A stretch of 33,440 nt of DNA from Eledone cirrhosa (taxonomy: Eukaryota): positions 1 to 33,440 of the forward strand of contig CAXHJY010000111.1 of the NCBI GenBank assembly GCA_964016885.1, given 5' to 3'. Below the pieces are notes generated by a model. It worked only from the letters and a program-made list of their open reading frames with translations. It did not search any database and was not told where the DNA came from. Made by a program: the position numbers and the translations under genes. Shown here in pieces: positions 25-18,088 of the stretch. Every line of letters begins with the position of its first letter. Within the stretch, counting starts at the first letter, position 1.

Positions 25-492
25 TATTAGCATTAACACAAGGCCAGCAATTTGGTGGAAGGTGGACATTGATTATATTAACCCAGTATTTAACAGGTAC
101 TATATTTTATCGAGTCAGGAAGACTAAAAGACAAAGATGACGCCAGAAGAAATGCTGCAAAGACTTGTGACCAACACTCTAACGACTATGCTAATCCAAT
201 ACGAAACAATTAAACACATATTGGTTTCTAATTTAAGCACAAATCCTGCAATTTTGAGGCATAAAAAGTCGATTAAATCGACCCTAGTGTTTGATTGGTA
301 CGTTATTTTATTGATCCCTTAATAATTGTTTCTACTTTTGGCACAAGACCAGCAATTACCCAGTACATTACTGGTACTTTAATAATGAGTGTCAACGTTG
401 ACCTCAGTGGGGTTCGAACTCAGAACGTAAAGAGCCGTAACTAAATGTTGCAAAGATTTTTTTTTACGCTCTAACGATTCTGCCAATCTACC
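25..492 (-). mobile_element. Cluster of degenerate copies of SINE family A (about 25-198, 225-320, 322-492)
   Basis: Reverse complement matches motifs repeated across the window: CTGAGTTCGAA (B-box-like), AAAGTACCAGTAATGTACTGGG and the tail CTTGTGCCAAAAGTAGAAACAATTATT. Boundaries are approximate. Confidence 0.65.
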
Positions 493-3017: not shown

Positions 3018-3131
3018 AGAGACGGTGAATTGACAGAGACGTTAAAACAGCGGATTAAAAATGTTTCCTTATTTATTCCGGCTTTGTGTTCTGAGTTTCA
3101 AGCACGATGGGGTCAGCTTTACCTTCCTTTC
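3018..3131 (+). mobile_element. Degenerate 5' part of SINE family A
   Basis: GGTGAATTGACAGAGACGTTA...GTTCTGAGTTTCAAG...GGTCAGCTTTACCTT, colinear with the other copies. Confidence 0.5.
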
Positions 3132-3137
3132 AAGGTA

Positions 3138-3194
3138 GTTGTTGTTGTTGTTGTTGTTCTTCTTCTTCTTATTATTATTATTATTATTATTATT
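3138..3194. repeat. Compound microsatellite (GTT)n(CTT)n(ATT)n, 5' flank of Tx1 copy 1
   Basis: Read directly from the sequence. Confidence 0.95.
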
Positions 3195-3410
3195 GAATGC
3201 CATGGTTGACGGAGGCTCGGCTCTGTAAGGTATAGTAATTTTTAACCGTTAAAACAATTGTAAATTGTTTAAAACTTGAACCAAATTGTTGATAAAGACA
3301 CCCTCCTCCTCGTGAGAGGGGTCTTTCTGTCCGTTATTTGGCCCTTCGGGGTTAAATAACCAGTTATTGGGGTTTTGTACCCAAAATTTCATTTTAAACA
3401 AAAAAACAAC

Positions 3411-5507
3411 ATGGCTACGAAAAAGAAATTTCATACGTCACTCCCACTCATTCCGTCTTCTTCTTCCTCAATCATCACTACAGCAGAGAGAAGATTGTCT
3501 CTCTCCCTCCCTTCTTTAAATGTGTCTCTCTCCCTCCCTTCTCTTTCACAAGCGACGAAAGAAAAGAAAAGTCTCGTGCAAAGCGTGCAAGGTTTCTCCA
3601 CGACGACGACGACAGCGACGAAACAGGTGTGCGGGAAATACGAAAACCCAGTTCATTCGTCTGACGTCAGGAATAATAGCAGTAGCAGCCGTAATAACAA
3701 CAGCAACAGTGACAATGAAAACAACAGTAGCAGCCGCAACAGCATCACCAGCAGCATAAACAACAACAGCATTAGCAGCAGCAACACCAACAACAACCAC
3801 AGCAACAGCGGCGGAGGCAGTAGTCGTAGTACCTGCAGCAACAACAAAAGTACCAGCAGCTCTGACGACAACAACAACAGCAGAGAAAAACCAATCTCAT
3901 TTGCAGGTATTGCGAAAAACTTGGAAACAATCCTCATAACAAATGAGGAATTAGAGGAAGCGAAGAAGATGGTGACAAAGAACGGACACCGAGCAATCTG
4001 CAAGGCAGCGAAAAATTTTTTCGAAACCCAAGAGCACTGTACGGTCACGTACCGTACAGTAAGTACAAAATCCCGTAGGGTGGAAAGAGCCACAGAGGCC
4101 CAAATACAAAAAGCCTTGGGGTCTGTGTGGCAGCGGAAAACGCACATCACCCGAGGCAAAAAATATGCCACCGTAGACGTACTTTTTGCCACACCCCAGG
4201 AGGCAAAGGCCCAATCAGTAGTGACCCTAAGGAGCGAGGAAATGGTGTTGGTGCCCTCCTACTGTGGGCAAAAAATTGTGAGGGTCAAACTGACCCACGT
4301 CCCCCCCGGAATGACCCCTTCTTGGCTGGCCGCGTCTGTCCTCGTCGGAATCGAGGACAAAACAACTGTACTGCAAGTACAGAAAAAAGTAAGAGAAGAT
4401 TGGGTCGGCTCCTCCATTGAGATGCTAATCCAAACCAACCAGGAGTGCATCGAAGCTATCCCGGATGTGATAGACTTCGATAACGGCACTCAACTGCCCA
4501 TAAGTGTTGAGGGCAAACGCCCGAAATGCTTTCGCTGTGGATCGAAGACTCACCTCAGGGCCTTCTGCAACGAGAAGACCCTGAGAAAGGAGAAAACCCC
4601 CCTCCTTCCGAATCCGGCTCCACGGCTACCAGCAACAGGACAAGCGGCAACCAGGAACGATAGGCCCGTGGCACCCATACCCACTCCACGGAAATCAAAA
4701 ACAGCAGCAGCAGTGGAAATACTAACAACAACAACAGCAATACCAAATGCAGCTGCAACAGAGACTCCAGTGCAAACATCACCAACAACAACAAGTGAAA
4801 GAGTGGAGTTGGTACCCCTCCCCGACCTCACAGAATCAGACATGGAGTGTGAGGTGGGAGAGAGATGGCAAAAGGTCGTAAGAAGGCACAAACGCAGAAG
4901 CAGCGCATCGTCGCCTTTGAAAAGGGAGGAAAGAAATGAGAAAAGGGTAAAGTCTACTGCAAAGAGACCCACAGCAGCAACAACACCAACACCATCACCA
5001 CCCACACTAGCGCCACCATCACCACCGGCGACAACCCCACCGCCAACAACACCTTCAACACCACCACCACAAGCACCAACATCGCAAACACAACAACAAA
5101 ACACACACACCCAGCAACAACGACAAGAAAATAGCAGAACCACACCCCACCCCCAGAAAAACAAATGCACGGCAATAAATACACACAACAAGAAACTAAT
5201 GACTTACATAATTGAACACACAGACATTTCACAACAGGACTACATAATACCAGCACCAATCAAAACGCCAACTAACATAAGACTGCTAAAAATAGCACAG
5301 AAACAATACACAAATATTAAAACGAAATTCCCCAACGCAGTTGGTGATTTCAGGGACCTAGGAGGAACCATCAATCGAAGAGTATACTCAGACATTCTCT
5401 TAGAAGAGCCGACGACCAGCCGAAGGGACGATTCAACGGTCCCTTCACCAGACGATCAAGTGAAAAGGGATGTAAAAACCATCCCTCCTCTACCAAAAGT
5501 ACGGTAA
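3411..5507 (+). CDS. Tx1 ORF1 (gag-like nucleic-acid-binding protein), 698 aa from the first ATG
   Basis: Open frame from ATG 3411 (MATKKK). CX2CX4HX4C knuckle CFRCGSKTHLRAFC, N/S-rich N-terminal and P/T-rich C-terminal linkers. Homologous to the copy 2 ORF1 core. Confidence 0.85.
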   Translation: MATKKKFHTSLPLIPSSSSSIITTAERRLSLSLPSLNVSLSLPSLSQATKEKKSLVQSVQGFSTTTTTATKQVCGKYENPVHSSDVRNNSSSSRNNNSNSDNENNSSSRNSITSSINNNSISSSNTNNNHSNSGGGSSRSTCSNNKSTSSSDDNNNSREKPISFAGIAKNLETILITNEELEEAKKMVTKNGHRAICKAAKNFFETQEHCTVTYRTVSTKSRRVERATEAQIQKALGSVWQRKTHITRGKKYATVDVLFATPQEAKAQSVVTLRSEEMVLVPSYCGQKIVRVKLTHVPPGMTPSWLAASVLVGIEDKTTVLQVQKKVREDWVGSSIEMLIQTNQECIEAIPDVIDFDNGTQLPISVEGKRPKCFRCGSKTHLRAFCNEKTLRKEKTPLLPNPAPRLPATGQAATRNDRPVAPIPTPRKSKTAAAVEILTTTTAIPNAAATETPVQTSPTTTSERVELVPLPDLTESDMECEVGERWQKVVRRHKRRSSASSPLKREERNEKRVKSTAKRPTAATTPTPSPPTLAPPSPPATTPPPTTPSTPPPQAPTSQTQQQNTHTQQQRQENSRTTPHPQKNKCTAINTHNKKLMTYIIEHTDISQQDYIIPAPIKTPTNIRLLKIAQKQYTNIKTKFPNAVGDFRDLGGTINRRVYSDILLEEPTTSRRDDSTVPSPDDQVKRDVKTIPPLPKVR

Positions 5508-5542
5508 GTGGTCTTTCCCATCTTTTCCACTCTATTTTAAAC

Positions 5543-8500
5543 ATGACCTCACTCAGAATAGGCAGCATAAATGCGCGTGGCTTGGGGTCGTCATGGAAGC
5601 AGGGTCACCTGCTCAACGACCTCAGGTCACTAAACATAGATGTAGTGGCCATCAGCGAGACCAGAATCTCCGAAGCACGGGCCTTCGCACCGATCTTCGG
5701 CGGCTACGATGTGTACGCATCTCCCAGCCGTCCTGGATCCGGTGGAGGAGTTGCTGTACTTTTTCGGAGAGGTTTGGATCTCGCCATACGGGCCATCTTC
5801 CTGGACCCAGAGGGTAAGCTGGTGGTGCTGGACGTGACCAGCGGAGACGGGCAAGCTTTCAGGCTAGTGGCCGTCTATGCCCCGACAGGAGCAGGGCGGC
5901 CTGATTTCTTCCGGCGTCTGGAGACCTTTCTTGGAACGTCGCGCTCTTTAGTGTTAGTGGGCGACTGGAACGGGATCTTAGATGCACGCTGGGACTGTGT
6001 GGGATTAGCGGATAGGGGTGGAGGGTGCAAGAGCCTCACCAACCTGCTCAGGCGTTTTGAACTGTCTGACAGGTACCGATTGGATTTCCCGAATGTGCCA
6101 ATGTGGACTTGGACAAACCGCATAGGGTCATCCAGATCATATCTAGATAGAGTATTTTGTAGGGAAATAGATAGGTCTAGCATAGGCTGTCCACAATTCA
6201 AGATAGTCAGCTACACGGACCACAAATTCGTGACCTGTGTGCTTGACTTAGATAGGCTTCATAGACAAGGACCCGGCTACTGGAAGCTAAACGCGTCCTT
6301 ACCAGCGCGCAAGGCCTACAGAGACCGGATTAACGAACTAGTTAAGCGGGCGTTGACGGGGGCCATCGTCAACAACAAGTGGTGGTTTGCTCTGAAAAGA
6401 GCGATTAGAATAGAATCGATTAGGTTTAGTAAGGCTTTAGCAATAGAGAAAAATAGAGCAGAGGGAGAACTAGTTAGAAAATTAGACGAGGCGCTTAGCA
6501 AAGGCATTGCGACCGACGTGCTTGCGGCGAAATTGGCCCTTGACCAATTCTTCAATGCAAAGCACGAAGGCTGCGTTGTCAGAGCTAGGGTGCGTGCTCT
6601 CAGACACGAGGGGACGAAAGCCGTTCAATGGGCCCGAGTGGCGGAGGCGCGTCGTGGCAACAAAGCCACGATCCGGTCTTTGGTGGACCACGACGGGCGC
6701 ATGCTACTCGATCCCGGGCAAATGTGTGAAGCTTTTCAGCGACACTTCGCTCAGCTGTTCGGGGGCAGCGGGGGGCCGGGTAGAGGGATGGACTTTAGTG
6801 TCTACCTCGACGGACTGCCGCGGCTCTCGGCCACTGAGGCGAAGTGTTGCGAAAAGCCGATAACAGCCGCTGAAGTAAGGGAGGCAATGACTGGCTGCAC
6901 AAGGGGTAAATCGCCTGGTTTGGATGGTCTGCCCTATGAACTTTACGTACAGATGCCAGACTTGTTCGGAGGCCTCTTAGCGGACGTCTACTGCAACTGG
7001 CAACAGAACGGGAGAATTCCCAGTTCTGTGAGCCGAGGAGCGGTGGCACTGCTGAGAAAGGATCCGAACAAGGGGGATAACATAGACAATTTCCGGCCCA
7101 TAACTCTGCTAAACACAGAGTTTAAGATTTTGGCCAAGGTGCTAGCAAAGAGGTTGGCGCTTGTCGTTGGTGGTCTGGTGGGAGAGGCGCAGACATGCGC
7201 CATTCCCGACAGATCCATCCACGACAACCTCCACCTCATGCGATACATCGTAGAGAGGGTAGCTAGGGAACCTGGCACGGGTGGGTCCTTGATCAATTTA
7301 GATCAGTCGAAAGCTTTCGATAGGGTCGACCATCGTTACCTAGCGGCAGTCCTGAGGGCGGCTGGCTTTGGGCCCGTCTTCAGAGGCTGGATCGCTGCCA
7401 TGCACAGCGACATCTGCTCTGTGGTGAGAGTGAACGGTCACCTGTCGGAACCGTTCAACATCATGCGCTCGGTCCGCCAAGGATGTCCCCTCTCGTCCCT
7501 CTTGTACGTATTGACTCTCGAGCCATTACTGCACAAACTGGAGACGTTGAGGGGAGTCCCGCGCGAACTAGGATGCGGAAGATCCGTGTCAGCATATGCG
7601 GACGATGTCACCGTAGTGGTGTCGAACGCCAAACACATCGAGGCGATCGGCACTACACTAAGAGAATACGAAGCGGTGACAGGAGCAATGATCAACCAGG
7701 AAAAGTCAGTGGGCCTGCAGCTCGGCACCTGGAGAGGCAGGTCCATGCCGTCCAACAGCGTCGTCGGGCGCTGGACGGACGGACCGGTTAAATTGCTAGG
7801 GGTCTGGTTCGGTCCGGACCTCCAGACGGACAAAAACTGGGACGAGGTGACGAGCAGGGTGGCTTCTCTCACCCAGAAATGGGCGGAGAGGAAGCTATCC
7901 CTGAAAGGTCGAGCGGAGGTGGCTAACGCGTACATCGCGTCTGTCATCTGCTACCGCCTAACCGTCGTACCTTGTCCTAAGCCTCGCCTGACTGCGCTGG
8001 AGCGTTTGCTCTTTCGCTTTTTGTGGAAGGGACGTGCTCCGATGGTCAGGCGGTCCATCTGTTGTCAACACCCGCTACGTGGAGGGCTGGGCATGCCGTG
8101 GCTGATGATGCGCAGGCACGCGCTCAGGCTACGACATCTCCACCTCTTCCTCGACGGTGATCAGGTGTGGTCGCCGTTTGCTAGACGCGTTTTTCCCCAG
8201 CTCGTTTCCTTGACGGAGCTGCAGTCCTGGGTCAAGCGAAGACCGAGAGGGAGCGCCTGGAGACTGGAATGTCTTCAGGCGCTCACAGCCCTCGACCAAT
8301 CGGGCAATGTGATCGGTGGAAACTCCACCTCGGCGTTCTATAGAGGATTAGTGGAGGGGAAGAGCGACGACGTACTTGGGGAAACTCTAGGCGTCGACGA
8401 AAATCAACTAGCCAATCTCTTCGGAAGAACTTTCGGGCCGGGGCCTATGGACAACTTCCAGAAATCTCTGGCCTGGCAGTGCTACCGAGGAGCCTTGCCA

Positions 8501-8962
8501 GTTCGGGATAAACTCTACAGGCATGGAGGTGCCGTCAGCCGGGCATGTCCGAGATGCGCGCAGGGCGAGGAAACCGTCCTGCACGCACTCGTCCAGTGTC
8601 CGAAAATTGCTGACTTGTGGGTTTATGTCGAACACCTGCTGTCGCGTTTAGGACGGATCCAGCTATCATCTGAGTCTATCGTGAGGATTGCCCCGCCCTC
8701 CTCCTTTAGCCGGGAAGGGCAGGCAGTTTTTATCTGTCTGGTGGCCATGGCGAAAGAGATAGTATGGTGGACACGTTTGAAAGGGCTGAAGACGAGCACT
8801 TACCTCTTCGGTGATGCTCTGATTGACTTTTTCAAATTTCATTTGAAAAGGAAAATCAGAGTAGAGAAGGAAGTGCTCTCTTCCCAGCATTTTGTTGAAA
8901 GATGGGTGAGAGAAGCAAGAATGGCCCGAGTGAATGGGCCGACTCTGAGTATATATCTGTAA
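5543..8962 (+). CDS. Tx1 ORF2: AP-endonuclease, reverse transcriptase and C-terminal zinc finger, 1139 aa
   Basis: APE motifs NARGL, ISET, VYAP, GDWN, YLDRV, TDH. RT motifs KSPGLDGL, NFRPITLLN, LDQSKAFDRVDH, RQGCPLS, YADD. C-terminal CPRC-X8-H-X4-C. Confidence 0.96.
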   Translation: MTSLRIGSINARGLGSSWKQGHLLNDLRSLNIDVVAISETRISEARAFAPIFGGYDVYASPSRPGSGGGVAVLFRRGLDLAIRAIFLDPEGKLVVLDVTSGDGQAFRLVAVYAPTGAGRPDFFRRLETFLGTSRSLVLVGDWNGILDARWDCVGLADRGGGCKSLTNLLRRFELSDRYRLDFPNVPMWTWTNRIGSSRSYLDRVFCREIDRSSIGCPQFKIVSYTDHKFVTCVLDLDRLHRQGPGYWKLNASLPARKAYRDRINELVKRALTGAIVNNKWWFALKRAIRIESIRFSKALAIEKNRAEGELVRKLDEALSKGIATDVLAAKLALDQFFNAKHEGCVVRARVRALRHEGTKAVQWARVAEARRGNKATIRSLVDHDGRMLLDPGQMCEAFQRHFAQLFGGSGGPGRGMDFSVYLDGLPRLSATEAKCCEKPITAAEVREAMTGCTRGKSPGLDGLPYELYVQMPDLFGGLLADVYCNWQQNGRIPSSVSRGAVALLRKDPNKGDNIDNFRPITLLNTEFKILAKVLAKRLALVVGGLVGEAQTCAIPDRSIHDNLHLMRYIVERVAREPGTGGSLINLDQSKAFDRVDHRYLAAVLRAAGFGPVFRGWIAAMHSDICSVVRVNGHLSEPFNIMRSVRQGCPLSSLLYVLTLEPLLHKLETLRGVPRELGCGRSVSAYADDVTVVVSNAKHIEAIGTTLREYEAVTGAMINQEKSVGLQLGTWRGRSMPSNSVVGRWTDGPVKLLGVWFGPDLQTDKNWDEVTSRVASLTQKWAERKLSLKGRAEVANAYIASVICYRLTVVPCPKPRLTALERLLFRFLWKGRAPMVRRSICCQHPLRGGLGMPWLMMRRHALRLRHLHLFLDGDQVWSPFARRVFPQLVSLTELQSWVKRRPRGSAWRLECLQALTALDQSGNVIGGNSTSAFYRGLVEGKSDDVLGETLGVDENQLANLFGRTFGPGPMDNFQKSLAWQCYRGALPVRDKLYRHGGAVSRACPRCAQGEETVLHALVQCPKIADLWVYVEHLLSRLGRIQLSSESIVRIAPPSSFSREGQAVFICLVAMAKEIVWWTRLKGLKTSTYLFGDALIDFFKFHLKRKIRVEKEVLSSQHFVERWVREARMARVNGPTLSIYL

Positions 8963-9224
8963 ACTAAAGGTGGAAAACTGGGAGAGGGCACTTGCCTTGG
9001 TGGTCAGGGTCATTGTGGCTTTTTACTGGGCTTTCTCCACAAATGTCCCTCCGAAGTCTCACCCCCTATTGGGGAATTTTTCATTGTTATTTTCATTGTT
9101 ATTTTTGTTACATCCTCTGTTTTTGTTTTTTTTACACGCAGAAATGCCCATTTGTACCGTCCTGCATTGTCCTGCACTGTCCTTAATGTCTACTTTATGT
9201 AAACCCTTGTGGTTAATAAAGAAA

Positions 9225-9226
<2 letters not shown>

Positions 9227-9280
<54 letters not shown>
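9227..9280. repeat. (ATT)18 separating the two Tx1 copies
   Basis: Read directly from the sequence. Confidence 0.97.
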
Positions 9281-9489
9281 GGCGACCTACGTAGTAAATC
9301 GCATCATCGTGAGCTCCGCAAAGGTTTGTTATTTCCGTTTGTTAAAAATTGCCATTTATGGAAAATTTTTATTGTTAACTATATATAAGCGCACATACAT
9401 TGTTTTCCGAAAAGGACACCCAAAAAGATTGGGGCCTTGTGCCCAAAATTTAAACTTTTATGATTATCAAAAAAATTCTTTGAAAAAAA

Positions 9490-11489
9490 ATGGCTAATTC
9501 ACCACTGCACCAAGCAGCTGAAAGCCTTTCTCACAAATTAACACCTCACACCGACACCACCATTGTAAATGATTATACGTCTTCCAACACAAACAATTTA
9601 AGCACTAGCAATATTTTAAATTTGTCTCAGGCAGACATTCATTTCCCGCCATTACCAATGACTGCAGGTGTTAAAGCCGACACCACCACCACCACCACCG
9701 CGACAACCACCACCCCCACCACCACCGCGACAACAGAAACAAAAGGAAAAAATAAATCAACTCGTGATGTCGAAATATTTTCAACCAAAATGGACTCTCC
9801 CAAACCGAACTTCACTGACGTCACCACTACCACAACTGAAACTAAAATTAATAATAACAAAAATAACGATAGCAACAACAACAACAATGACATTAAAAAA
9901 ACGACCCTGAGTTTTGCCAGAGTAGCAAAACAGTTCGAAGCATTTACGGTAACTCAGGGGGATTTAGAAAATGCCGCCAAACAAATGGTAAAGAAAGATG
10001 GGTACAGGGTCAGCCCCCCCCCCCCCCCACCACCACCTAATAAAATGGAGCATCGGCACCTATGCACCGTGTCGTATCGAACAATAAATGTAAAATCGCG
10101 CCGAGTGGAACGGGCATCCGAGTCCCAAATCCAAAAAGCTTTGGGACATGTGTGGGCAAGAAAAACCCACATCAGACGTGGGCAGAAGTATGGAACCGTG
10201 GACGTGTTCTTTGAAACACCAGAGGAGGCTAGAGAACACTCCATGGCCCCATTAAGAAGTGACGACTTCACACTCGTCCCAAGCTATTGTGGCCAGAGAC
10301 TCGTAAAGATCAGGGTGACTCACGTTCCACCAGCCATCGAAATTCCCTGGCTAATAGCGGCCGTCCTCGCCGGCATCGAAGCCAACACAAAGATAATAGC
10401 AATAGCAAAAGAAAAGCAGGAGAACTGGTCCGGATCTGGGATGGAGCTCCAGATCCAAGCGGACCAAAAAAGCATTGAGGAGATCCCAGAGGTAATAGAC
10501 CTCACTGACGGCAGCCACCTCACCGTAATTGTCGAGGGCAGAAGGCCTAGGTGTGTCGTTTGTGGTGAAGGAACCCACCTAAGGGCTTTCTGCCCTCAGG
10601 CTAAAAGGTTGAGGCCACCTCTCCTACCCACCCCAGTGACACAACCATCAACACCACCAGTAGCAGAGATGGCAGCAACAACTGTAGCAGCAACAACAGA
10701 AGCAACTATAACAGCAACAACCCCAGCAACAGTAGCAAAACCAACACCACCACCGCCAGCAAAACCAACACCACCACCACCCAACGCTTCAGAACTAGCA
10801 CCAGCGCCCACACCATCCAACACGCCACAACCAAAACTAACGCCTGTGGAGGATTTTCCACTCTCCGGCCTGTCACAACTGGAGACAGATTGTGACGACG
10901 AGGAGTGGGGAAATGGTATCAGGAAAAAAAAAAGAAACCAAAAAATAAAAAATTCTCTTCCTTCCCCCTCCAAAAACAAAATACAGAGGGAAACAAATAA
11001 AGTAACAAACAAAAAAGTTAGGACAGATATCCCACCATCCACACCAGCATCACCAACCCCATCAACCCAAACACCAACACCATCACCATCATTAACTCCA
11101 ACACCACCATCACCTACACCACAAAAGTCACCAAAATGCGATACAGAAACAAACCCACAACAAACGCAAACAAAACAAAACAACCAAAACGATACACACT
11201 ACACAGCATTAAATTTGAACAATAAGCAATTATTACACTACATTCAACACAACACCACATCACAGAAAAAGACTACACAACAACCCCAAAATTCACACCA
11301 CCTCCACACATACAAATCACTCGCATCACACAGAAAACGTTCATGACACTAAAACAAAAATTCCCCAAAGACATCGGAGACTTCCGACAAGCACTCTCCA
11401 GGAGGATTTATAAGGACATCCTTCCTGAGGAGGCCACAAGCAGTGAAAAGGATGGAGAAACCGTCCTTCCCCTACGAGAAGTAAGGTAA
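9490..11489 (+). pseudogene. Tx1 copy 2 ORF1 with one frameshift near 11257
   Basis: CCHC knuckle CVVCGEGTHLRAFC. After about 11257 the shifted frame reads ITEKDY...KQKFPKDIGDFR...RRIYKDILPEE...LPLREVR* (TAA 11487-11489), matching the copy 1 C-terminus KFPNAVGDFR...RRVYSDILLEE...LPKVR*. Confidence 0.85.
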
Positions 11490-11523
11490 GTGGTCTTTCC
11501 CATCTTTTCCACTCCTTTTCAAC

Positions 11524-14500
11524 ATGACCTCACTCAGAATAGTCAGCATAAATGCGCGTGGCTTGGGGTCGTCATGGAAGCAGGGCCACCTGCTCAACGA
11601 CCTCAGGTCACTAAACATAGATGTAGTGGCCATCAGCGAGACCAGAATCTCCGAAACACGGGCCTTCGCACCGATCTTCGGCGGCTACGATGTGTACGCA
11701 TCTCCCAGCCGTCCGGGAACGGGGGGAGGAGTTGCTGTGCTTTTGCGGAGAGGTTTGGATCTTGCCATACGGGCCATCTTCCTGGACCCAGAAGGTAAGT
11801 TGGTGGTGCTGGACGTGACCAGCGGAGAAGGGCAAGCTTTCAGGTTAGTGGCCGTCTATGCCCCGACAGGAGCAGGGCGGCCTGATTTCTTCCGGCGTCT
11901 GGAGACCTTTCCTGGAACGTCCCGCTCTTTAGTGTTAGTGGGCGACTGGAACGGGATCTTAGATGCACGCTGGGATTGTGTGGGATTAGTGGATAGGGAA
12001 GGAGGGTGCCAGAGTCTCACCAACCTGCTCAGGCGTTTTGAACCGTCTGACAGGTACCGAATGGATTTCCCGAATGTACCAATGTGGACTTGGACAAATC
12101 GCATTGGGTCATCCAGATCATATCTAGATAGAGTATTTTGTAGGGAAATAGATAGGTCTAGCATAGGCTGTCCACAATTCAAGATAGTCAGCTACACGGA
12201 CCACAAATTCGTGATCTGTGTGCTTGACTTAGATAGGCTTCATAGACGAGGACCCGGCTACTGGAAGCTAAACGCGTCCTTACCAGCGCGCAAGGCCTAG
12301 AGAGACCGGATTAGCGAACTAGTTAAGCGGGCGTTGACGGGGGCCATCGTCAACAACAAGTGGTGGTTTGCTCTGAAAAGAGCAATTAGAATAGAGTCCA
12401 TTAGGTTTAGTAAGGCTTTAGCAATAGAGAAAAATAGAGCAGAGGGAGAATTAGTTAGAAAATTAGACGAGGCGCTTAGCAAAGGCATCGCGACGGGCGT
12501 ACTTGCGGCGAAATTAGCCCTTGACCAATTCTTCAATGCAAAGCACGAAGGCTGCGTTGTCAGAGCTAGGGTGCGTGCTCTCAGACACGAAGGGACGAAA
12601 GCCGTTCAATGGGCCCGAGTGGCGGAGGCGCGTCGTGGCAATAAAGCCACGATCCGGTCTTTGGTGGACCACGATGGGCGCATGCTACTCGATCCCGGGA
12701 AAATGTGTGAAGCTTTTCAGCGACACTTCGCTCAACTGTTCGGGAGAGTGGCGGGCCGGATCGAGGGATGGACTTTAGTGTCTACCTCGACGGACTACCG
12801 CGGCTTTCGGCCACTGAGGCGGAGTGTTGCGAAAAGCCGATAACAACCGCTGAAGTACGGGAGGCAATGACTGGCTGCACAAGGGGTAAATCGCCTGGTT
12901 TAGATGGTCTGCCCTATGAACTTTACGTACAAATGCCAGACTTGTTCGGAGGCCTCTTGGCGGACGTCTACTGCAACTGGCAACAGAACGGGAGAATTCC
13001 CAGCTCTGTGAGCCGAGGAGCGGTGGCGCTGCTGAGAAAGGATCAGAACAAGGGGGATAAACATAGATAATTTTAGGCCCATAACTCTGCTAAACACAGA
13101 GTTCAAGATTTTGGCCAAGGTGCTAGCAAAGAGGTTGGCGCTTGTCATTTGTAGTCTGGTGGGAGAGGCACAGACATGCGCCATTCCCGACAGATCCATC
13201 CACGACAACCTCCACCTCATGCGATACATCGTAGAGAGGGTAGCTAGGGAACCTGGCACGGGTGGGTCTTTGATCAATTTAGATCAGTCGAAAGTCTTCG
13301 ATAGGGTCGACCATCGTTACCTAGCGGCAGTCCTGAGGGCGGCTGGCTTTGGGCCCGTTTTCAGAGGCTGGATCGCTGCCATGCACAGCGACATCTGCTC
13401 TGTAGTGAGAGTGAACGGTCACCTTTCGGAACCGTTCAACATCATGCGCTCGGTCCGCCAAGGATGTCCCCTCTCGTCCCTATTGTACGTATTGACTCTC
13501 GAGCCATTACTGCACAACTGGAGACGTTGAGGGGTGTCCTGCGCGAACTAGGATGCGGAAGATCCGTGTCAGCATATGCGGACGATGTCACCATAGTGGT
13601 GTCGAACGCCAAACACATCGAGGCGATCGGCACTACACTAAGAGAATACGAAGCGGTGACAGGAGCAATGATCAACCAGGAAAAGTCAGTGGGCCTGCAG
13701 CTCGGCACCTGGAGAGGCAGGTCCATGCCGTCCAACAGCGTCGTCGAGCGCTGGACGGACGGACCGGTTAAATTGCTAGGGGTCTGGTTCGGTCCAGACC
13801 TCCAGACGGACAAAAACTGGGACGAGGTGACGAGCAGGGTGGCTTCTCTCAACCAGAAATGGGCCGAGAGGAAGCTATCCCTGAAAGGTCGAGCGGAGGT
13901 GGCTAACGCGTACATCGCGTCCGTCATCTACTACCGCCTGACCGTCGTACCTTGTCCTAAGCCCCGCCTGACTGCGCTGGAGCGTTTGCTCTTTCGCTTC
14001 TTGTGGAAGGGACGCGCTCCGATGGTCAGGCGGTCCATCTGCTGTCAACACCCGCTACGTGGAGGGCTGGGCATTCTGTGGCTGATGATGTGCAGACACG
14101 CGCTCAGGCTACGACATCTCCCTCTCTTCCTCGACGGTGATCAGGTGTGTTCCCCGTTTGCTAGACCCGTTTTTCCCCAGCTCGTCTCCTTGACGGAGCT
14201 GCAGTCCTGGGTCAAGCGAAGACCGAGAGGGAGCGCTTGGAGACTGGAATGTCTTTAGGCGCTCACAGCACTCGACCAATCGGGCAATGTGATCGGTGGA
14301 AACTCCACCTTGGCGTTCTGTAAGGGATTAGTGGAGGGTAAGAGCGACGACGTACTTGGAGAAACTCTAGGCGTCGACGAAAATCAACTAGCCAATCTCT
14401 TCGGAAGGACTTTCGGGCCGGGGCCTATGGACAACTTCCAGAAATCCCTGGCCTGGCAGTGCTACCGGGGAGCTTTGCCAGTTCGGGATAAACTCTACAG

Positions 14501-14942
14501 GCATGGAGGTGCCGTCAGCCAGGCATGTCCGAGATGCGCACAGGGCGACGAAACCGTCCTGCACGCACTCGTCCAGTGTCCGAGCATTGCTGACTTGTGG
14601 GTTTATGTCGAACACCTGCTGTCACGTGTAGGACGGATCCAGCTATCAGCTGAGTCCATCGTGAGGATTGCCCCGCCCTCTTCCTTTAGCCGGGAAGGGC
14701 AGGCAGTTTTTATCTGTCTGGTGGCCATGGCGAAAGAGATAGTATGGTGGACACGTTTGAAAGGGCTGAAGACGAGCACTTACCTCTTCGGTGATGCCCT
14801 GATTAACTTTTTCAAATTTCATTTGAAAAGGAAAATCAGGGTAGAGAGGGAAGTGCTCTCTTCCCAGCATTTTGTTGAAAGATGGGTGAGAGAAGCAAGT
14901 ATGGCCCGAATGAATGGGCCTTCTCTGAGTATGTGTCTGTAA
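11524..14942 (+). pseudogene. Tx1 copy 2 ORF2, disrupted
   Basis: Near identical to copy 1 ORF2 but with TAC>TAG at 12298-12300, a -1 indel near 12750, +1 near 13060, -1 near 13517 and CAG>TAG at 14256-14258. Confidence 0.93.
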
Positions 14943-15210
14943 ATTAAAGGTGGAAAACTGGGAGAGGGCACTTGCCCTGGTGGTCAGGGTCACTGTGGTC
15001 TTTTAATGGGCTTTCTCCACAAATGTCCCTCGGAAGTCTCCCCCCTATTGGGGAATTTTTCTTTGTTATTTTATTACATCCTCTGTTTTTTTACACGCAG
15101 AAATGCCCATTTCTACCGTCCTGTATTGTCCTGTACTGTCCTTAATGTCTACTTTATGTAAACCCTTGTGGTTAATAAAGAAAACTTTATTATTATTATT
15201 ATTATTCGCC

Positions 15211-15268
15211 TACTAAAGTACCAGTAATGCACTGGGTAATTGCTGGCCTCGTGCCAAAAGTAGAAACA
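15211..15268 (+). mobile_element. 5'-truncated SINE family A 3' end with a 13-bp TSD
   Basis: AAAGTACCAGTAATGCACTGGG...GTGCCAAAAGTAGAAACA is flanked by ATTATTATTCGCC at 15198-15210 and 15269-15281. Confidence 0.75.
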
Positions 15269-15275
15269 ATTATTA

Positions 15276-15355
15276 TTCGCCCACTTATTCCTGAGATGGT
15301 CGTAGGGACAGGGGCCTCAAACACACCTTCCAGCGGGTCCTGTCAGAAGCAACCA
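15276..15355 (-). mobile_element. RTE-clade LINE extreme 3' end fragment
   Basis: TTCGCCCACTTATTCCTGAGA...TCAGAAGCAAC matches 28245-28323. Confidence 0.75.
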
Positions 15356-15494
15356 TTGAACTAAATCTTATAGACATGTTTCTTTACGTATCTGGAAGAT
15401 TAAAGATTATGCCACTCTCATGAGATGAAATATAATAGAAAACTGTTGTTTTGTTATTTGAATATAATGCTTATATTATTATTACTTTCTTTAG

Positions 15495-15935
15495 CATAGT
15501 TACGTTCCTTTACGGTCTGAGTTCAAATCCCGTCGAGGTTAAATTTTGTTTTTCATCCTTACGGGGTCGATAAATTAAAGTACAAGTAATGTACTGGGTA
15601 ATTGCTGGCCTTGTGCCAAAAGTAGAAACAATTATTATTACTTTCTTTATTTTTGTATTTATTTTATATTTGTTGTTGTTGTTTTGTTTGCACGCCAAGG
15701 AGGAACCCCATCTCGGATGCTTGTATTCACGATATAATTCTTTCGGGCTGTGGATTGGCAGTATCGGTAGAGAGTCGGACACCATGCTTTGAAGCATAGA
15801 GTTACGTCCCTTTATGATCTGAGTTCAAATGCCCCCGAGGTTAACTTTGCCTTTCATCCTTACGGTGCCGATAAAATAGAGTACCAGTAATGTATTGAGT
15901 AATTGCTGGCCTTGTGCCTAAAATGGAAACAATTA
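15495..15935 (+). mobile_element. Two SINE family A copies in direct orientation (about 15495-15638 and 15745-15935)
   Basis: Both contain TCTGAGTTCAAAT..GAGGTTAA..TTTCATCCTTACGG..GATAAA..GTAC.AGTAATGTA..GTAATTGCTGGCCTTGTGCC..GAAACAATTAT. Confidence 0.85.
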
Positions 15936-16167
15936 TCTAAGATTTATGACCATAGGAAGGGTTTATTTAGCAAGGTTGATAAATAAAATACCACTAGGTG
16001 CTAGGGTTGATTCTTTTCCTAATATCTCTTTCTCACTAGGAATAAACAATAACAACATTATAGAGTCTTTGATGTTTGTATTTATTTATTGTTTTTATTA
16101 TAGTTTGAAAGTAATAATGTATATTTTTATGAAAATCATGTTTCCATTTTATGGTTCACGATTGTCA

Positions 16168-16462
16168 TAAACAGTCAAAACAACAACAACAAAAGTAACA
16201 ACAGCAACAATAATAACAGCAACAACAAAAGCAATAACAACAACAGTAACAACAGTAATAACAACAGCAACAAAAACAATAGCAGCAGCAGCAACAACAA
16301 CTAAAGCAATAACAACAACAACAACAACACCAACAACAGTAACAACGACAATAGTAACAACGACAAAAACAACAACAGTAACAACAACAAGAATTAACAA
16401 CAACAGTAACAATGATAAAAACTAACAACAACAGTAACAACTACGAAAACTAACAACAACAG
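16168..16462. repeat. Degenerate (AAC)n tract
   Basis: Read directly from the sequence. Confidence 0.9.
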
Positions 16463-16469
16463 TATGTGT

Positions 16470-16776
16470 GAAGGTGCGTGGCTTAGTGGTTAGGGTATTC
16501 GGCTCACAATCGTAATGTCTTGAGTTCGATTCCCGGTGGTGCGTTGTATCCTTGAGCAAGACACTTTATTTCAACTGGCAAAAGTGAGTTGTACCTGTAA
16601 TTTGAAGGGCCAGCCTTATCACATTCTGTGTCACACTGAATCTCCCTGAGAACTACGTTAAGGGTACGCTTGTCTGTGGAATGCTCAGCCAGTAGCACGT
16701 TAATTTCACGAGCAGGTTGTTCCGTTGATCAGATCCACTGGAACACTCGTCATCGTAACCGACGGAGTACCAGTAG
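16470..16776 (+). mobile_element. tRNA-derived SINE family B, near full length
   Basis: A box TGGCTTAGTGG and B box GAGTTCGATTCCC, then CCTTGAGCAAGACACTTTATTTCA and a non-tRNA body. A second copy lies at about 22270-22500 on the minus strand. Confidence 0.85.
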
Positions 16777-16779
16777 TAT

Positions 16780-17088
16780 GTATAGGCCGTAACTCTTGAG
16801 GTAGTCGTAGGGGTGCCATATTGGGCAATTTTTTAAACCCGGTGGAGCATATCTACCTTCCAGCAGATTTCTTCCAGAGAAGAATAGAGTAAGAGAATGG
16901 AAGTGAGAAAGAGATATAGATGAAGAATCGATTCAGTACATGACTGGTACTTTTTTTTTATCAACCAAGAAAGGATGAAAAGCAAAGTTGACCTCGGCGG
17001 GATTTGAACTCAGAGAGGAGAGGAGAGAAGTGGAACGAATACCGCAAAGCATTCTATCTGACGTTCTAACGACTCTGCCAACTAACCC
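16780..17088 (-). mobile_element. SINE family A head with an alternative 3' tail
   Basis: Head GGATGAAAAGCAAAGTTGACCTCGGCGGGATTTGAACTCAG. Tail (reverse complement TCTCTGGAAGAAATC...TTACGGCCTATA) is shared with 26965-27075. Confidence 0.65.
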
Positions 17089-17090
17089 CC

Positions 17091-17615
17091 TAACAGCAAC
17101 AGTAACAACAACAACAGTAACAACAACAAAAACAACAGCAACGACAGTAATAATAACGAAAACAACAAAAACAACAGTAACAACAACAAAAACAACAGCA
17201 ACAACAGTAATAATAACGAAAACAACAAAAACAACAACAGTAACAAAAACAAAAATAACAACAGCAACAACAACGAAAACAACAAAAAACAACAGCAGCA
17301 ACAACAGTAAGAACAATGAAAACAACAACTACAATAACAACAACAGTAACAAAAACAAAAGTAACAAAAACAGCAACAACAACAAAAAGAACAAAAGCAA
17401 CAGCAGCAACAACAGTAACAACAAAAACAACAACAAAAACAACAGCAACAACAGTAATATTAACGAAAATAACAAAAACAGCAACAACAGTAACAAAAAC
17501 AAATAACAACAACAACAACAACAACGAAAACAACAAAAAACAACAGCAGCAACAACAGCAACAACAATGAAAACAACAAAAACAATAAGAACAATAACAA
17601 CAACAACAACAAAAG
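17091..17615. repeat. Degenerate (AAC)n tract with an internal duplication of about 60 bp
   Basis: Read directly from the sequence; ACAACAGTAACAACAACAAAAACAACAGCAAC.ACAGTAATAATAACGAAAACAAC occurs twice. Confidence 0.9.
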
Positions 17616-17739
17616 TATAAATCTTAGGAAAGACGTTAAGTGTCAAGGGACATAACTATTGTACAACAGGTCACAGATATAGGAAATATATATAGAGTTA
17701 AGATTGTTTAACTGACTGATGTAATATATAGTTAATTAA

Positions 17740-18088
17740 TGGTGGTGGTGGTGGCGGTGGTGGTAGCGGTGCTTGTGGTGGTAGCGGTGGTGGTGGTGGT
17801 AGCGGTGGTTGTGGTGGTGGTAACGGTGGTTGTGGTGGTTGTGGTGGTGGTAGTGGTGGTAGAGGTGTTGGTGGTGGTGGTAACGGTGGTTGTGGTGGTA
17901 ACGGTTGTTGTTGTGGTGGTGGTGGTGGTAGTAGTAGTGGTTGTGGTGGTGGTGGTGATGATGGTGGTCTTGGTGGTGTTGGTAGTGGTGGTGGTAGTGG
18001 TGGTGGTAACGGTGGTTGTGCTGTTGTTGCTGGTGGTCGAGGTAGTGGTGATGTTGTTGATTTTGGTGGTGGTAGCGACGGTGGTTGT
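17740..18088. repeat. Degenerate (GGT)n tract
   Basis: Read directly from the sequence. Confidence 0.9.

Follow-up and report, generated by a model that had tools for sequence, protein, structure and literature searches.

Two LINE-type retrotransposons lie one behind the other inside a single ATT microsatellite of the octopod Eledone cirrhosa, and the locus raises the question of whether this repeat was the target of both insertions or is simply the tail that such elements carry at their 3′ end. The window, by which we mean the whole stretch of DNA analysed, comprises 33,440 nucleotides of contig CAXHJY010000111.1 (assembly GCA_964016885.1).

Locus layout and junctions

The two copies and the repeats around them are as follows.

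3138-3158: (GTT)7
3159-3170: (CTT)4
3138..3170, minus strand: the same two runs read as (AAG)4(AAC)7, likely the distal tail of an older RTE-like element
3171..3194, plus strand: (ATT)8, flanking copy 1 on its 5′ side
3195..9226, plus strand: copy 1, a full-length Tx1-like LINE with both ORFs intact
9227..9280, plus strand: (ATT)18, separating the copies
9281..15185, plus strand: copy 2, a full-length LINE with both ORFs broken
15186..15206, plus strand: TTT (15186-15188) and (ATT)6 (15189-15206), flanking copy 2 on its 3′ side

On the plus strand, the window thus reads (GTT)7(CTT)4(ATT)8, copy 1, (ATT)18, copy 2 and TTT(ATT)6, with the copies head to tail in one orientation. The initial annotation had described this (ATT)n-copy-(ATT)18-copy-(ATT)n layout, with a shared orientation and no poly(A), and had taken the ORFs of copy 1 to be intact; the repeat and copy coordinates bear out the former, and the open frames of ORF1 (698 aa) and ORF2 (1139 aa) the latter.

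Both 5′ junctions read ATT|G. Both 3′ ends consist of AATAAA and six further nucleotides (GAAATC and GAAAAC), after which the repeat follows in register, and the repeat phase is identical at all four LINE/ATT junctions. The left tract is a compound of GTT, CTT and ATT units, of which the copies adjoin the ATT segment only. Long ATT runs are otherwise scarce: in the window outside 3138-15206, counting both strands, none of 42,742 positions is preceded by at least six ATT units and three of 42,742 are preceded by at least four. Positions that follow at least three units number 22 in the window, and no such LINE is found at these short runs.

Origin of the microsatellite

To the right of copy 2, the minus strand carries the remains of another element, which we take to be RTE-like from C-terminal motifs in its translation.

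15276..15353, minus strand: 3′ terminus of the RTE-like element, with the microsatellite as its likely tail; shares 81% identity with the copy near 28245-28322
15701-15744 and 15939-15956, minus strand: further pieces of the same element

When both LINEs and a small SINE are removed, the minus strand reads from this 3′ end through (AAT)n into (AAG)4 and (AAC)7. The related copy near 28245-28322 bears a long (GAA)n tail, and the copy at 26530-26701 likewise terminates in GAA units. The microsatellite is therefore likely to be the tail of the older antisense element and to predate both LINEs, a reconstruction made from the flanks of one locus. If the tract is the tail of that element, the (ATT)8 on the 5′ side would not be a Tx1 tail, and the target was likely present before insertion, as is asked of the repeat-targeting families Kibi and Koshi. 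RTE-like copies were also seen at 28127-28760 (minus strand) and 26530-26701, one with a (GAA)39 tail, and the tails vary by copy (GAA versus AAT/AAG/AAC).

Coding content and clade membership

The internal features of the two LINEs are listed below.

3195..3410, plus strand: 5′UTR type 1 (copy 1)
3411..5507, plus strand: ORF1 type 1, 698 aa, with two RRM-like folds, one CCHC knuckle and low-complexity flanks
5504..5556, plus strand: ORF1 stop, 35-nt spacer and ORF2 start; candidate 53-nt intron (GTAAGT, pyrimidine tract, CAG)
5543..8962, plus strand: ORF2 of copy 1, 1139 aa, with APE endonuclease, RT and zf-RVT / C-terminal CCHC
8963..9226, plus strand: 3′UTR of copy 1, with AATAAA at 9215-9220 and without poly(A)
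9490..11488, plus strand: ORF1 type 2 (copy 2), frameshifted near 11265, its core sharing 56% protein identity with type 1
11486-11537, plus strand: equivalent splice-like motif in copy 2
11524..14942, plus strand: ORF2 of copy 2, with stops at codons 259 and 912 and three one-base indels

Pfam assigned Exo_endo_phos, RVT_1 and zf-RVT to ORF2, and every endonuclease, RT and C-terminal zinc motif that was sought is present in copy 1. ORF2 thus combines an N-terminal APE, an RT and a C-terminal cysteine motif, the combination that marks the L1 group. Its top PDB match was human L1 ORF2p (E 1e-52, residues 5-854), with R2 reaching only 1e-21. The hairpin loop of the endonuclease aligns to human L1 without gaps and is two residues shorter than the Tx1L graft. 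In a quick RT tree of 76 of 85 rows, which held no named Tx1 or L1, the element clustered with protein P0001 (99) and with nine more proteins at about 40-44% identity (99). An atlas search returned APE-RT clusters only, all unnamed.

The core of ORF1 was modelled from a 42-sequence alignment (pLDDT 93), and the model matched tandem-RRM proteins (E 9e-5; Z 8.1, rmsd 3.0, 83 aligned). A CCHC knuckle was found in ORF1 of both copies, and zf-CCHC in 5 of the 42 aligned members. As modelled, ORF1 is predicted to consist of two RRMs and one CCHC knuckle, the arrangement of Tx1-type elements, which the accessible text of PMC5203782 indicates is consistent with the Tx1 clade. This arrangement, as opposed to coiled coil-RRM-CTD, is found in plant L1s too and is not unique to Tx1. 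A word search with ORF1 gave no match; a profile search did find relatives, and those that are named are octopod. A weak Pfam match of ORF1 to MBD lay under the cut-off and was discarded. Taken together, membership of the Tx1 clade is probable. The initial annotation's Tx1 label holds for the L1/Tx1-type anatomy (an APE-RT-zinc ORF2 and a two-RRM plus CCHC ORF1).

Likely exchange of the 5′ module

Comparison of the copies revealed two very different histories on either side of the ORF1 stop. High identity (95.2%) is confined to ORF2 and the 3′UTR (5459-9226 versus 11442-15183) and begins at the region of the ORF1 stop and spacer. Within ORF2, dS was 0.10 and dN 0.02 (dN/dS 0.2), whereas synonymous sites of the ORF1 core are saturated (pS 0.755, dN 0.32). 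The 5′UTRs are barely alignable, type 1 and type 2 giving a global score of 39 against a maximum of 36.5 in 200 shuffles. Some of the indels in copy 2 fall in short A runs.

The contrast between a near-identical ORF2 and a saturated ORF1 argues that the copies belong to separate lineages that evolved under selection, and that recombination near the ORF1 stop likely brought in one of the two 5′UTR+ORF1 modules. Two master lineages would then share a recent common ORF2 and 3′UTR, the targeting and copying module, while carrying different 5′UTR+ORF1 modules that may have been traded by recombination at the stop. Treating the copies as one family, as was done at the outset, is thus appropriate for ORF2 and the 3′UTR but does not extend to the 5′UTR and ORF1.

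Replacement of the 5′ module is known from mammalian L1, and exchange of ORF1 from Jockey, CR1 and L2. As in those elements, a recent ORF2 is here joined to different 5′UTR/ORF1 sequences; unlike in those elements, an entire homologous ORF1 has been exchanged, with a sharp break at the stop codon, and the two forms stand side by side. Diversity of ORF1 types is described in the accessible part of PMC5203782. The LINE pair shows, in nature, one ORF2 combined with two ORF1 modules.

Despite their low overall identity, both 5′UTRs share a TTGGGG..TTGT.CCCAAAATTT block directly upstream of ORF1. Each also carries a similarly placed AAG|GT motif (3226-3236 and 9319-9329).

A candidate intron at the ORF1 stop

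In both copies, the stop of ORF1 falls within G|GTAAGT, with a pyrimidine tract downstream and the first CAG at codon 5 of ORF2. If 53 nt were excised from copy 1 (52 nt from copy 2), ORF1 would run on into ORF2 without a change of frame, and splicing from the donor motif could thus yield an ORF1-ORF2 fusion, of 1833 aa in copy 1. The donor context has a chance of about 0.004 once a TAA stop is assumed, a figure calculated post hoc. Against splicing, ORF2 has its own ATG and the candidate intron is very short. The splice joint was not found among the 15 of 2720 listed, and no ORF1-ORF2 intron in such LINEs was found in a literature search. Two gene models, P0263 and P0275, in which other sequence is joined to an endonuclease piece, were set aside as they do not contain the ORF1-ORF2 junction in question. 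If true, the fusion would be a gag-pol-like route to the polymerase.

Representation in sequencing runs

Mapping of four runs skipped 3129-3200 and 9214-9288, that is, the microsatellite junctions. In run X1, depth was 35,090 in the first bin and 117,540 in the next, which fits a family start near 3200; the first-bin ratio was much lower in run X6 (8,032 versus 205,291), where a 443-nt contig begins to align at 9289, on the border of the repeat that mapping had skipped. Run X1 contained many contigs for each 5′ type, and in run X6 the type 2 module was far rarer than type 1. Summed depth in X1 climbs about fourfold at the ORF1/ORF2 border, with the qualification that depths are not copy numbers. 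Among the 40 of 1021 rows listed, copy 1 differs at three ORF2 positions from more than 97% of the X1 contig depth, and on account of these differences it is probably not a fresh insertion. With both ORFs intact, it may be active, as the initial annotation suggested.

At least half of the sampled ORF2 words were found in 13 runs under 10 organism labels. Run X11 was very thin, and the raw-read run X22, labelled as X10, gave low-complexity patches only and no ORF2 reads. Close loci of the family were not found in metagenomes, viral contigs or GTDB genomes; the metagenome search gave 80 loci at only 21-39% identity, with a short AT repeat in 2 of the 31 inspected.

An ATT-tailed SINE

The window also holds five copies of a SINE-like repeat.

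15211..15268, plus strand: 5′-truncated copy with an ATT-containing 13-bp target duplication (15198-15210 / 15269-15281)
15493-15630: SINE-like copy
15751-15934: SINE-like copy
29896-30081, minus strand: SINE-like copy
322-491, minus strand: SINE-like copy

An ATT run lies at or near the 5′ flank in four of the five, and three have ATT-containing duplications (9, 13 and 19 bp). These sites are ATT runs of about three units with unique flanks. When the last 22 bases of three SINE copies were set against the LINE end in register, 13, 14 and 14 matched; in this post hoc comparison, 10 of 41,190 background positions reached 14 matches. The 3′ ends of LINE and SINE showed no stable fold (z -0.2 to -1.3) and no Rfam match. 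Dong or RTE elements are alternative candidate partners of the SINE. SINEs make up 11.6% of the Octopus vulgaris assembly (PMC13282606), and if the LINE family also moves the ATT-tailed SINE, a large share of octopus repeats would have a named partner.

We regard as doubtful the fullest version of events, in which an octopod LINE lineage of Tx1 type is active, inserts strictly into (ATT)n, exchanges its 5′UTR and ORF1 as whole modules on one targeting ORF2 and drives the ATT-tailed SINE, perhaps with the 53-nt intron and the 1833-aa fusion.

Probable targeting of (ATT)n

The arrangement is best explained if each copy inserted separately, by target priming directed to (ATT)n, so that the two now stand in tandem in one tract, and we consider this account probable. 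That the LINE family prefers ATT repeats is likewise a claim in which we have good confidence, on the evidence of one locus that had been singled out for that very pattern. Both repeat-flanked copies (2/2) come from this locus, and the benchmark in the accessible text of PMC4494074 is more than 20% of copies. The initial proposal of an (ATT)n-specific family is upheld in that the tract likely predates the insertions, but not as to family-wide specificity, which reaches beyond the one locus examined.

Under the directed account, the endonuclease would nick the (AAT)n strand, and the RNA would extend a few bases beyond AATAAA and take in AUU repeats transcribed from the parent site. These AUU repeats may pair with the nicked end and prime reverse transcription there, which would explain why no poly(A) is copied and why the phase is kept. 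Each insertion would duplicate part of the tract and so renew the target, giving rise to head-to-tail arrays. In a pure repeat, such target duplication cannot be measured within the tract. If the ATT end of the first copy simply served as the site, the second insertion was not independent. The endonuclease mainly sets the target, and Tx1-group LINEs are known to target microsatellites, according to the accessible text of PMC4494074. Two observations run contrary to a strict endonuclease model, namely the L1-length hairpin loop and the presence of the SINE at short ATT runs.

Both observations would fit a weak, tail-guided preference, an unlikely explanation in which the (AUU)n tail of the element acts with a loosely specific endonuclease and a few AAT units suffice for priming; long ATT tracts would be hit more often, yet would not be a required target. 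The L1 length of the loop agrees with this, as the human L1 loop is loosely specific and that of Tx1L is longer in the sections of PMC1950540 available. The flanking ATT runs and the 9-19 bp duplications of the SINE-like copies are in its favour, since the landing of the SINE indicates that pairing between tail and primer could by itself account for ATT on either side, and priming by microsatellite-like tails is proposed for RTE-related retroposons in the available part of PMC6007223. However, a long tract encloses each LINE completely, no duplication includes unique sequence, and the short ATT runs that are common in the window (the 22 positions noted above) hold no such LINE.

Very unlikely is the absence of any targeting, with ATT merely a 3′ tail, one copy placed in the tract by chance and the other by chance or local enrichment. 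A single locus in a window rich in microsatellites leaves room for coincidence, but the (ATT)8 on the 5′ side of copy 1 cannot be the tail of either copy, the phase is the same at both 5′ ends, and none of the flank positions counted follows six or more ATT units. Least credible of all is an assembly artefact that joined two loci across ATT, or a tandem duplication by unequal crossover: no listed contig spans the stretch and some indels of copy 2 could be sequencing errors, but the outer flanks fit together as a single pre-insertion site, which makes misassembly less plausible, and duplication would not yield a dN/dS of 0.2 plus different ORF1s.

Comparison with known target-specific elements

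Known targets of the Tx1 group, in the accessible text of PMC4494074, are Tx1D, U2 genes, (TC)n, (TTC)n, (TTCC)n/(TTTC)n and transposons, to which a figure legend of the same source adds satellites, U5 and 5S. Directed insertion in (ATT)n by the present pair would resemble that of Kibi at (TC)n, Koshi at (TTC)n and crocodilian Tx1 families at (TTCC)n/(TTTC)n, which the same portion describes as likewise two-ORF APE-RT LINEs in a microsatellite. Unlike these, the target here is (ATT)n, without C, the host is an octopod and two ORF1 types are found on one ORF2. What is new is thus likely to be the target repeat and the host, as homing of a Tx1 LINE to a microsatellite was already known. No Tx1 family on (ATT)n was found in the literature searched, although Repbase, Kojima and Fujiwara 2004 and the supplements of PMC4494074 may list one. 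The accessible portions of PMC9115989, PMC8967140, PMC4758252 and PMC3747384 contained nothing on Tx1 targets in cephalopods.

The same class of repeat is targeted by Dong, for which TAA microsatellites of silkworm, mosquito and snail are given in the available text of PMC3812793; there, TAA repeats are named as a target for Dong only. In Octopus vulgaris, Dong-R4 elements are abundant and have been active recently (PMC13282606, in the part available). R4-clade elements encode a restriction-like endonuclease according to the accessible part of PMC4640811, with which PMC3812793 conflicts in that its available text places Dong among the APE types. A Dong/R4 identity, with a single ORF and a C-terminal restriction-like endonuclease, is ruled out for the LINE pair by its two ORFs and N-terminal APE. 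As the endonuclease type and the layout with a separate ORF1 differ from Dong, a shared ATT/TAA target would be convergent.

Octopus vulgaris carries 80 L1-Tx1 families, of which 13 are recently active with 421 insertions (PMC13282606); the word 'target' is absent from the main text of that paper. This set very possibly includes the LINE family described here. If our account is true, (ATT)n joins the targets of APE-type Tx1 elements, converging with the unrelated Dong, which is abundant in octopus. The intact copy 1 also supplies an endonuclease with which recognition of a pure A/T repeat by APE enzymes could be tested.

Other features of the window

A 60-bp minisatellite of about 20 copies, ACC-rich, occupies 1519-2746, with the insertion site about 400 bp downstream, and ACC/AAC-rich tracts akin to it lie at 16179-18073. 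At 16588-16743 (minus strand), tblastn aligned 48 aa with 67% identity to part of the Octopus bimaculoides gene model P0192, in which an ORF1-like piece is also present. A near-perfect palindrome of 1.3 kb (99.8%) at 23633-24941 is either a foldback element or an assembly artefact, and a (TA)n run of more than 1 kb (32400-33440) closes the window.
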